Of a stretch of DNA of 64,000 bases, positions 1 through 2,157 are shown one piece after another (within the stretch, counting starts at the first letter, position 1; each line of letters starts with the position of its first letter). The DNA lies in assembly GCA_014728035.1 (NCBI GenBank), contig WJMJ01000131.1, positions 1-64,000 on the forward strand, given 5' to 3'. Both the position numbers and the translations under genes were made by a program. This DNA comes from Promethearchaeota archaeon (GTDB lineage Archaea > Asgardarchaeota > Thorarchaeia > Thorarchaeales > Thorarchaeaceae). The notes under the pieces are model-generated. The model did no database searches and was not told where the DNA came from. It was given only the letters and a program-made list of their open reading frames with translations.

Positions 1-110
1 AAACATACTGTCCAAACCGTCGATTGTAAAACACAGCCACATAACTCAAGAGGTTTCTCAATCGACATCTTGTGGAATGTTTTGCGTAATCTCGGTAAGA
101 GAGAAACATG

Positions 111-232
111 GAAAGAAAAGGAGTGCGAAAAGCGGTTAACGTTCTTCGGTTTGTTAATGTTAAACTAATGAGCGTAGATACAGCGGTGTATAACCACGGG
201 TCCTGTTTCCTCAAATTCCTTGTTACCAAGAT
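111..232 (-). repeat. Diverged direct-repeat copy of the actin 3' end, 3' UTR and terminator (relic/att-like)
   Basis: 158-221 matches 972-1035 at 54/64 nt and translates on the - strand as KEFEETGPVVIHRCI versus actin [15 protein letters not shown]. 111-147 (aaagaaaaggag..gaaaagcg-gttaa-cgttcttc) matches the actin terminator at 930-965. Confidence 0.9.
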
Positions 233-295
233 ACTCTCCTGAATCTCAAGAGAGATATAAGGAAATGCACATACTAATGAGTGAGGCCAATCTTC

Positions 296-526
296 ATGGG
301 AAATAGACTGATCGTTACAGACCCAGAGGTCATGATGGGAAAACCAGTGATTACCGGAACACGAATCACAGTTGAGATGATCTTGGACAAATTGGCAGCA
401 GGAGAAACCATCGACCAGATTCTAGAGGATTATCCTCAGTTGACCCGTGAATCGATTCTCGCAGCACTGTCCTTCGCGGCTGATGCCATGAAGACAATCA
501 CTGCATATCCGACTGAGGCGTCCTAG
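296..526 (+). CDS. DUF433 family putative antitoxin
   Basis: IVTDPEVMMGKPVITGTRITVEMILDKLAAGETIDQILEDYPQLT matches the DUF433 signature. An alternative GTG start lies at 281. Confidence 0.9.
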   Translation: MGNRLIVTDPEVMMGKPVITGTRITVEMILDKLAAGETIDQILEDYPQLTRESILAALSFAADAMKTITAYPTEAS

Positions 527-528
527 AG

Positions 529-885
529 TTGTGAATACTTGCGGACGAATGTATCGAGCAGAGTATAGTACAGAGTCTCAGAGAAAATGGTTTCAAAGTA
601 GATTACATCCTTGAATCCGCACCAGGATCTACAGACTCGACTGTACTCTCAATGGCCGAGTCTTCCCGCTCTATCTTGATGACTGCAGACAAGGACTTCG
701 GTGAATTGGTGTATCGTCAAGGGAAAGCTCATCATGGAATAATCCTGGTTAGACTGCATGGAGTTCCTAGAGAAAACAAAGTAGCAATACTAACTACAGT
801 GTTGAAAGAGCACGAAGGTAAGTTGGTAGGAGCTTTCACTGTTGTTGAACCAAATCAGGTCAGAATCAGTAGACCATCTGCATGA
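529..885 (+). pseudogene. DUF5615 PIN-like toxin with disrupted start (TTG-TGA-ATA-CTT-GCG-GAC-GAA)
   Basis: The frame of ORF 652-885 extends upstream as ILADECIEQSIVQSLRENGFKV..., the typical DUF5615 N-terminus, and continues to ILMTADKDFGELVY...HHGIILVRL. There is an in-frame TGA at 532-534. Confidence 0.7.
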
Positions 886-929
886 TAACATAGAGTTCAC
901 GGGATATCTTACACTCTAAGCGAGTTGAG

Positions 930-965
930 AAAAGAAAAGGAGAAGAAGAGCGGAAGTCGCTCTTC
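930..965 (-). terminator. Hairpin plus pyrimidine/U tract terminator of actin
   Basis: GAAGAGCG-5nt-CGCTCTTC stem (945-965) followed on the - strand by TTCTCCTTTTCTTTT. Confidence 0.7.
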
Positions 966-987
966 ACGTTGTGTTAAACTAATGCGC

Positions 988-2157
988 TTAGATACACCGG
1001 TGTATTACTTCCGGTCCTGCTTCCTCGAATTCTTTCCTTGAGACCCACATTTACCAGGCTGCAACAGGAATTGCTGCAACATTCTGGAAGGTCTTCAAGG
1101 ACGCAAGAATTGAGCCACCGATCCAGACGGAGTATTGGCGCTCAGGAGGAGCAATGATACGGACCTCGATGTTCTCTGGGACGAGTTCGGAAATCTCTTT
1201 GTGGAGACGTTCCTTGAGTCCTGGGAACATGGTGGAACCGCCGGAGAGTACGATGTTAGCGTACAGGTCACGTCGCAAGTCAACGTCACAAGACTTGATA
1301 GCCTCGACAATGTGTTCGTCAAGAGGAATGGAGTCAAGTCCGATAGCGCTTGGGTTAAAGAACAGTTCAGGGGCCTGGAATCGCTCAGCACCTACAGTGA
1401 TAACCTCACCGTCGGGGAGCATGTATGGTTTATCCACACCAGCTTTGTCAGCAACGGAGCGTTCACGCTCGGGGTCAAGGGCAATGTAACATAATTTCTC
1501 CTTGATATCTCTGACAATTTCTTTCTCAGCACCGCTTACGAATGCATAACCTCTCTGACGGAGAAGTCTGCGCAAGTATTCGGTGATGTCTCGACCAGCC
1601 AAGTCAATACGTTTGATTGCGTGGTTGATTGAGAAACCTTCGTATACAGGAACGATGTGAGTAACACCGTCACCAGAGTCGATAACCAGACCAGTGGTTC
1701 TTCCGGACGCGTAGAGTGACAGAACAGCCTGTGTAGCCACATAGACTGCAGGGACGCCAAAGCTGTCAAACATGACAGAGGCCATACGTTCTCTGTTCTC
1801 TCGTGGGTTGAAAGGAGCTTCAGTCAGAAGGACTGGATTCTCACTAGGGTCAACTTTGAGGTCATTATAGAACGTGTATGACCAGATTTTTTCAATTGCA
1901 TCCCAGTCATCAACGACACCGTGTGTAATAGGATAGACTAGTCGAAGAACACCACGGAGGTTAATTGCCTCCTCACCAATGTAATAGTCACGTGTGTAGT
2001 GATCGACGTCAGTCATAATAGACTCATAACGTGGATAACCAATGAGTGTTGGCCATACACTGCGTGGTTGGTCCTCGCCTGCATATCCGTTTTTGCTCAA
2101 ACCAGTGCCATTATCAATGACAACGGGTTTGGCACCAAGAAATTCATCTTCAGCCAT
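988..2157 (-). CDS. Asgard actin (lokiactin-type); exon 1 2157-1082, exon 2 1051-988; 379 aa if spliced
   Basis: Motifs [58 protein letters not shown] and [13 protein letters not shown]. The conserved C-terminus [20 protein letters not shown] lies in frame after the TAA at 1051-1053. Confidence 0.95.
1052..1081 (-). other. Putative 30-nt bulge-helix-bulge (tRNA-endonuclease-type) pre-mRNA intron
   Basis: RNA reads CCAG-AA^U-GUUGCAGCA-AUUCC-UGUUGCAGC-CUGG-UA^A: a 4-bp central helix, two 3-nt bulges and a 9-bp intron stem, plus exon-exon pairing. Excision gives TTC CAG AAA ATG TGG (FQKMW). Confidence 0.85.

Follow-up and report, generated by a model that had tools for sequence, protein, structure and literature searches.

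A toxin-antitoxin cassette between two actin 3' ends in a thorarchaeon, and cassette arrays at the actin end across the Thorarchaeaceae

Two actin ends around a predicted toxin-antitoxin pair

The stretch of DNA analysed here, the window, comprises 64 kb from the start of contig C103 in a 4.3-Mb Thorarchaeota metagenome-assembled genome (MAG; G000), and its position 1 is the contig end. Near that end lies an actin gene on the minus strand whose 3' end occurs a second time downstream, with a predicted toxin-antitoxin pair between the two copies. Exon 1 of actin (1082..2157, minus strand) matches the Pfam Actin family with an E-value of 1.4e-121. It is followed by a 30-nt intron of the bulge-helix-bulge (BHB) type (1052..1081, minus strand), which splits a Lys codon (AA/A) and carries an in-frame stop. 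Exon 2 (988..1051, minus strand) supplies the one base completing the Lys codon, the canonical C-terminal end (1051-991) and the stop codon (988-990).

A repeat tool reports the duplication as a 64-nt direct repeat, 158-221 versus 972-1035, at 84% identity (54/64), with the copies 814 nt apart. Local alignment widens it to 111-221 versus 930-1035, where 84/110 positions are identical (76%), and the resulting unit spans about -44 to +61/+66 relative to the actin stop. Its BLAST E-value is 1.5e-10 within the locus and 5.8e-15 against the whole 4.3-Mb assembly, in which BLAST found no third copy. The proximal unit (930..1035, minus strand), which is the working end of actin, comprises the last 15 codons (991-1035), the stop codon, the 3' untranslated region (UTR), to which positions 972-987 of the repeat hence belong, a GC-rich hairpin (945-965) and a T-rich tract (927-944). 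The distal unit (111..221, minus strand) is a relic with the same parts: the last 15 actin codons (177-221), a stop decayed from TAA to TAC (174-176), the 3' UTR, the hairpin (126-149) and a T-rich tract. Its peptide reads EFEETGPVVIHRCIY, and its codons differ from the working ones at five third positions, one first and one second position. An earlier note on this DNA, made from the letters alone, had described this repeat with its copied terminator, five synonymous third-position changes, a decayed stop, and a DUF433/DUF5615 pair as the only content between the copies. The repeat tool and local alignment, the codon comparison, and the list of open reading frames (ORFs) with Pfam matches bear out this description.

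Between the units lie DUF433 and DUF5615 only, both on the strand opposite to actin. The first gene (281..526, plus strand; likely start ATG at 296) encodes a predicted antitoxin of the DUF433 family (COG2442; Pfam PF04255, E 1.4e-26). It is the single DUF433 gene in the genome and lies antisense to actin, with its promoter side towards the relic unit. The second gene (531..888, plus strand), adjacent at 8 nt, encodes a predicted toxin of the PIN-like DUF5615 family (Pfam PF18480, E 2.3e-21 over 535-882) and is frameshifted: a GTG start at 531-533 is followed by a 2-nt deletion, the family-matching frame at 535-882 and stops at 883-888. Two intact orthologues (L104 and L107) have GTGAAACTACTT where the window has GTGAATACTT, with 2 nt missing after the GTG. 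Read in frame from that GTG, the gene gives EL, a stop and ILADE (TTG TGA ATA), and the next in-frame ATG comes 39 codons on; the window thus holds no intact toxin frame with a start codon. The frameshift falls within 529-540, directly after the GTG, and yet the remaining 116 DUF5615 codons are open, which points to recent inactivation, a non-canonical start or a sequencing error.

In its two genes, their domain families and the antitoxin-first order, the pair resembles the PIN-COG2442 (DUF433) pairs predicted to be type II toxin-antitoxin systems (Makarova, Wolf and Koonin 2009, PMC2701414), and the orthologues also have the GTGA stop/start overlap of such systems. It departs from them in the frameshift at codon 2-3 of the window toxin, and in that the DUF433 genes of relatives have other partners, either MNT/HepT or two small genes of no family. 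Look-ups of the exact products (the 368-aa actin ORF, DUF433 and the truncated DUF5615) returned no record.

A congener, isolate BC (SHMX01; G001), is represented by an independent assembly, in which actin is followed by a unit, two small overlapping genes that belong to no known family, DUF433 and a second unit. Over 109 nt these two units agree to 96%. Positions 112-450 of the window, which hold the relic and the 5' part of DUF433, align to the congener at 77% identity, against a background of about 80% in a 4-kb alignment of actin and its upstream flank. In the same alignment, window positions 451-927 have no counterpart in the congener, and the DUF433 reading frame continues intact across the point where homology stops. 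Given that the congener has both the relic unit and DUF433 at background divergence, the cassette was in place before the two species split, and the toxin-side genes were exchanged in one of them afterwards. In the place of DUF5615 beside its DUF433, the congener has two overlapping genes (L032:6068-6843; 121 and 137 aa) without a Pfam family, which may be a new toxin-antitoxin-like partner set for DUF433. Across the DUF433-bearing cassettes seen (L061 in G049, L146 in G101, L056 in G001, and the window), DUF433 adjoins the distal unit, while its partners vary among DUF5615, MNT plus HepT, and two unassigned genes.

Cassette arrays at the actin end across the family

We searched 86 Thorarchaeaceae genomes with a degenerate pattern for the last nine actin codons plus TA. 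It matched in 77 of the 86, and 28 had two to six matches, that is, one to five beyond the first; a reversed control pattern gave no match in the same 86 genomes. Most extra matches lie on the contig and strand of actin, 0.3-5 kb apart, and some on separate short contigs. Among 63 named Thorarchaeota loci taken with 10-kb flanks, 25 carry extra units, all of them downstream of actin and on its strand. The comparison downstream of actin that the earlier note had asked for thus yields both repeated actin 3' fragments and variable cargo.

Each unit takes in the final ~15 actin codons with their stop codon, followed after about 10 nt by a conserved AGTTT, then a GC-rich hairpin and a T-tract. Its right edge is sharp, at +58 to +64, past the hairpin and T-tract, while the left edge ranges from -31 to -69 and mostly falls at -41 to -59; no relic has more than about 69 coding nt. 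In genomes without an array, this UTR and hairpin form the actin terminator. Cassettes range from 0.3 to 4.6 kb and are often 0.3-1.3 kb long, and the arrays lie between actin and conserved downstream genes (L057 compared with L061). Contigs often stop within about 150 nt of a tail unit (for example L060, L063, L075, G047:C21, G073:C267 and G059:C115), which suggests that strain-level variation at the arrays breaks assemblies; the array sizes given here are therefore underestimates.

What the arrays carry is highly diverse. Beside DUF433/DUF5615 we found HepT/MNT with or without DUF433, GNAT, TPR, beta-lactamase-like hydrolase, ArsR, S15 peptidase, deaminase, an HD/radical-SAM protein, methyltransferase, nitroreductase and XRE with DUF3796, together with many secreted or membrane proteins of no family. 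No gene family common to all arrays was found. Homologous cargo is shared across genera at only 50-75% identity, which is uninformative, and shared cassettes were accordingly rejected as proof of recent transfer.

The layout could be an artefact or a plain duplication: strain variants may have been assembled into a chimera at the end of a contig, or the whole actin gene may once have been duplicated in tandem and then have decayed. No more than 110 nt separate the relic from the start of its contig, in a MAG with an estimated contamination of 8.5%, units often abut contig ends in other MAGs, and one of the 28 genomes (G045) really has a tandem actin paralogue. That case was excluded from the tail units, as the second 'copy' at its locus (L108) is the end of a real 373-aa actin. 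Against an artefact, the longest exact stretch common to the two window copies is 13 nt, a length that would not lead a k-mer assembler astray. The independent congener assembly has the same arrangement with a homologous DUF433 and relic, and the DUF433 frame runs intact across the end of that homology. Arrays are seen in dozens of MAGs from different studies, on contigs of which some reach 80-470 kb. The shortness of the relics and the variable cargo likewise speak against a decayed full duplication. Both scenarios, which the earlier note had named as ways in which its reading might fail, are thus almost certainly wrong.

The earlier note had read the island as a reduced integrative element. 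On such an account, a classical integrase-bearing element or provirus would have used the actin 3' end as its attB site and provided a new terminus, and its integrase and most other genes would have disappeared later. Direct repeats do flank the cargo, the gene end is regenerated and the old end displaced as at tRNA genes, and toxin-antitoxin cargo is typical of islands. However, a Pfam scan detected no integrase or transposase domain in the window island or among 35 cargo ORFs from the arrays of about 14 genomes, and many cassettes are too short to hold an integrase gene. On the right the repeats have a constant edge, on the left they do not, and no invariant core was found beyond the conserved codons. 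The cassette is also common to the congener with its cargo only partly exchanged, and is therefore not a recent arrival. A search for the actin-tail fragment as an attP site in viruses, suggested in the earlier note, found no match to the degenerate pattern among 2.9 million IMG/VR contigs, plasmid collections not being included. The actin 3' end is thus upheld as a recurrent insertion site, whereas an integrase-bearing origin of the island appears very unlikely. The separate contigs with tail units (in G047, G054, G059, G064, G068, G073, G078 and G101) showed no integrase in their ORF lists, judged by inspection without a Pfam scan; they were considered as mobile elements and rejected, being array fragments or distal array flanks.

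Former actin ends and a probably imported intron-bearing patch

Over 29 pairs of working and relic units, differences number 96, 30 and 27 at codon positions 3, 1 and 2, and per-site identity between units has a clear 3-nt periodicity. In one genome (G009), three relics differ from the working tail at 23 sites, all of them third positions, and about half of all relics still encode the intact peptide. Given this third-position bias and periodicity, the relics evolved as working actin ends. In several genomes the relic has the hairpin type of the closest relative's working tail while the genome's own working tail differs (L081 and L092 versus L089, L061 versus L057, L120 versus L060), and distal units are often more similar to that relative's tail than the working tail of their own genome is. 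Tails distributed in this way would be expected where incoming DNA brings the new end and moves the old one outward. The claim of the earlier note that the distal copy is a displaced former actin end is thereby supported, through the third-position bias and through relatives' tail types in other genomes; in G000 itself the tail type lends weak support, the relic being 86% identical to the working tail of the congener. Integron-like insertion after an unchanged resident site was rejected, as the working tails change and the relics keep relatives' type.

The BHB intron gives a second view of exchange at this gene end. It lies upstream of the repeat unit, 16 nt from the left edge of the latter, and its proposed hBHBh' structure (with flanks, 1031-1103) has standard pairs in 95.4% of paired cells and compensatory changes at 6 pairs, a value reached in none of 500 shuffles. 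Of the 25 family genomes with actin loci that were read, 6 have the intron (G000, G013, G015, G023, G009 and G020), and the congener G001 lacks it. A metagenome scan for the intron with its flanks returned one contig only, which is G015-like and has a single tail and no array.

The actin coding sequence (CDS) of G000 is a mosaic around this intron. Exon 1 is G001-like over CDS nt 1-1038 (93-98% identical) and switches to a G015/G013-like sequence from about CDS nt 1044 (~1040; about 1114 in the window), outside the repeat unit. The 31 nt after CDS nt ~1038 show 11 differences from G001 and 3 from G015, and in the 44 nt before the intron the identity is 0.91 with G015 and 0.70 with G001. The 3' UTR is of the genus type again, at 0.77 to G001 and 0.65 to G015. 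Sliding identity and difference maps delimit a patch of ~125 nt (991..1120, minus strand) that takes in ~35 nt at the end of exon 1 together with the intron and the CDS of exon 2 and that, on this mosaic evidence, appears to have come from an intron-bearing lineage. This suggests that gene conversion brought a tRNA-type intron laterally into an mRNA, along with exon sequence on its flanks. Given the switch near CDS nt ~1040, homologous exchange acts on the actin end with a breakpoint within the conserved gene body, outside the repeat.

A like architecture occurs in G000 at an unrelated gene. The last ~22 codons of an Asparaginase_2 gene (C121:74295-75957; L148:1796-3458) recur 784 nt downstream, and an antisense VapB/VapC(PIN) pair lies between the tail copies, in the same layout as at the actin island; this repeat has no hairpin. 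The asparaginase gene is poorly conserved, and its tail duplication is a one-off.

We considered whether the units are att-like sites for site-specific recombination by a recombinase encoded elsewhere, the cassettes being integrase-less and moved in trans. Parallels exist in cis-mobilisable elements, in Xer-dependent dif modules and, loosely, in integron cassettes. The unit is conserved and its right edge sharp, the hairpin is an inverted repeat of about 10 bp with a 4-6 nt spacer and compensatory changes, and the arrays consist of short cassettes without an integrase of their own. One protein with a tyrosine recombinase domain (PF00589) is encoded in G000, on contig C17, and none on C103, serine recombinases not having been searched genome-wide. 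On the other hand, the UTR and hairpin are simply the actin terminator in array-less genomes, the hairpin arm sequences vary, working and relic units share no invariant core, and the left edge varies. A strictly integron-like insertion is contradicted by the changing working tails and the relics of relatives' type, and the breakpoint in the actin body and the hairpin-less asparaginase repeat would be left unexplained. We regard movement in trans as possible, though unlikely.

Endonuclease-driven homing is another route to repeated tail replacement: a nuclease, possibly the PIN-like toxins, would cleave actin alleles at around codons -15 to -20, whereupon a resistant tail with the element would be copied in from a filled allele during repair and the old tail left downstream. 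The architecture resembles that of the yeast WHO clusters at FBA1 (Coughlan et al. 2020, PMC7282813). Left edges do cluster at -41 to -59, and both tail duplications in G000 contain PIN-family toxins. Most cassettes, however, lack a nuclease-like gene and the arrays have no family in common; the LAGLIDADG, HNH and GIY-YIG families were not found among the 35 scanned cargo ORFs, although 9 of these have no Pfam family and PIN-like toxins are nucleases themselves. Working tails and relics encode the same peptide, which leaves no obvious resistant allele. The PIN toxins of toxin-antitoxin systems are, to our knowledge, RNases, which also counts against this route, and we hold homing at the actin end to be highly improbable.

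The explanation that we favour, and give somewhat better than an even chance, is that the island in the window is a one-cassette example of a Thorarchaeaceae-wide cassette array, anchored on the actin end and built by homology-driven displacement of the tail. We prefer homology-driven recombination because the left edge varies, the units have no invariant core, no recombinase was found in the arrays, the breakpoint lies outside the unit, and the asparaginase locus has a like architecture. New DNA would arrive with its own actin tail plus cargo and recombine with the resident actin, such that the incoming tail would become the working gene end and the former tail would be pushed downstream as a relic; repeated rounds would give arrays of up to four or five units. 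The joining would be driven by homology, with no need of a dedicated integrase: homology would be provided on one side by the very conserved body or tail of actin and on the other by a short tail copy beyond the cargo, and a single crossover with a circle bearing one unit would be an equivalent route. A toxin-antitoxin pair would then stabilise the insert against loss by recombination between its two units. After the species split, the toxin-side genes would have been exchanged, and the ~125-nt patch with the BHB intron converted into the G000 actin end.

Several points weigh against homology-driven displacement. No donor-recipient pair has been caught, and the crossover mechanism is read from mosaic sequences. 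The relic in G000 and the working tail of the same genome are equally near the working tail of G001 (both 0.86), and the contig ends 110 nt beyond the relic, which limits the view of its distal context. A search of the G000 assembly for a continuation past the contig end found neither another copy of 1-230 nor an orthologue of the gene that lies downstream in the congener, and no public sequencing runs with window positions 1-1400 were listed. Homology alone should produce arrays at many conserved genes, whereas a genome-wide, protein-level scan of G000 for tail relics found actin and the one asparaginase gene only, and the asparaginase duplication is absent from 28 orthologous loci of relatives. 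The clustering of left edges at -41 to -59 could mark a nuclease or recombinase site, and a novel enzyme of either kind could hide among the many cargo proteins that belong to no recognised family; of the 35 cargo ORFs scanned, 9 were without any Pfam match. In this connection we also considered that the actin tail unit is the recognition site of a dedicated nuclease or recombinase, making the locus a capture platform comparable to an integron, with the PIN-like toxins or the family-less cargo as a possible source of the enzyme; this seems to us distinctly unlikely. A dedicated enzyme, if there is one, would constitute a new recombination system. If plain homologous recombination is at work, the extreme conservation of actin would make the gene a homology arm common to genera.

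Known systems, significance and further gene-end copies

The closest architecture known to us is that of the WHO elements of Torulaspora and Lachancea, each arrival of which replaces the 3' end of FBA1 and leaves former ends as direct-repeat relics in clusters downstream (Coughlan et al. 2020, PMC7282813). In both systems, the 3' end of a highly conserved, highly expressed housekeeping gene is repeatedly replaced and relics remain downstream. WHO elements encode the endonuclease behind their homing, with clusters made up of WHO genes and pseudogenes, whereas the Thorarchaeota cargo is unrelated between cassettes and neither a nuclease nor another common gene was found.

Integrative elements and tandem islands at the 3' ends of tRNA, tmRNA or protein genes are a second point of comparison (Williams 2002, as cited in PMC8813620), and HeimV1 at tRNA-Gly in Heimdallarchaeum is a named example of an integrative element at a gene 3' end. 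With such elements and islands the actin arrays share direct repeats of a 3' end flanking the insert, the supply of a new gene end, tandem reuse of the site and frequent toxin-antitoxin cargo. Those elements either bring a tyrosine or serine integrase with them or depend on one for their mobilisation, and their att core is fixed; in the actin arrays neither was found, the left edge varies and the crossover lies outside the repeat. Displacement without an integrase has a precedent in the orphan arrays of Rhs/CDI and T6SS effector-immunity genes, where recombination via the conserved part of a gene displaces the old C-terminus together with small partner genes. There the tail, a toxin tip with its immunity gene, is the variable and selected part, whereas the actin arrays keep one and the same tail peptide and differ only in their hitch-hiking cargo.

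Integron cassette arrays have been reported in Archaea (Ghaly et al. 2022, PMC9668308). Like these, the actin arrays are rows of small, swappable cassettes of one to few genes with structured repeats between them, and toxin-antitoxin cassettes are frequent. Unlike integrons, they have no IntI beside the array, their repeats are copies of a gene end and not attC sites, the proximal site is replaced in each event, and cargo genes, which face either way, have promoters of their own. Searches of the literature on mobile elements of Asgard archaea, integration into actin, archaeal integrons, BHB introns of Asgard mRNAs and introns in Thorarchaeota actin returned no description of the actin-end locus.

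Among the eukaryote-like genes of Asgard archaea actin is the emblematic one, and within the Thorarchaeaceae it hardly varies. Its 3' end is a landing pad where accessory and defence-type genes have been added, swapped and fossilised repeatedly. This gives a concrete and testable route along which genes pass among the archaea closest to eukaryotes, apparently in the absence of the integrases by which known islands are defined. In the relic tails, former gene ends are preserved as a dated stack that could reveal the order and the donors of transfers, and the same stretch of actin points to lateral movement of a tRNA-type intron within a protein-coding gene.

Upstream of actin in the window lie genes for a 264-aa protein without a Pfam family and for an RNase III-like protein. 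Elsewhere in G000, at C82:569-1141, the junction of the RNA polymerase B and A' subunit genes has a duplicated 5' end of the A' gene, with the peptide MLTGIPTKKIDSIEFGLLSP occurring twice, 493 nt apart. Short copies of gene C-termini also stand at the starts of two further contigs (C118:1-127 and C123:46-152), several kb upstream of full genes ending in the same peptide; these could be further tail relics or collapsed paralogues.

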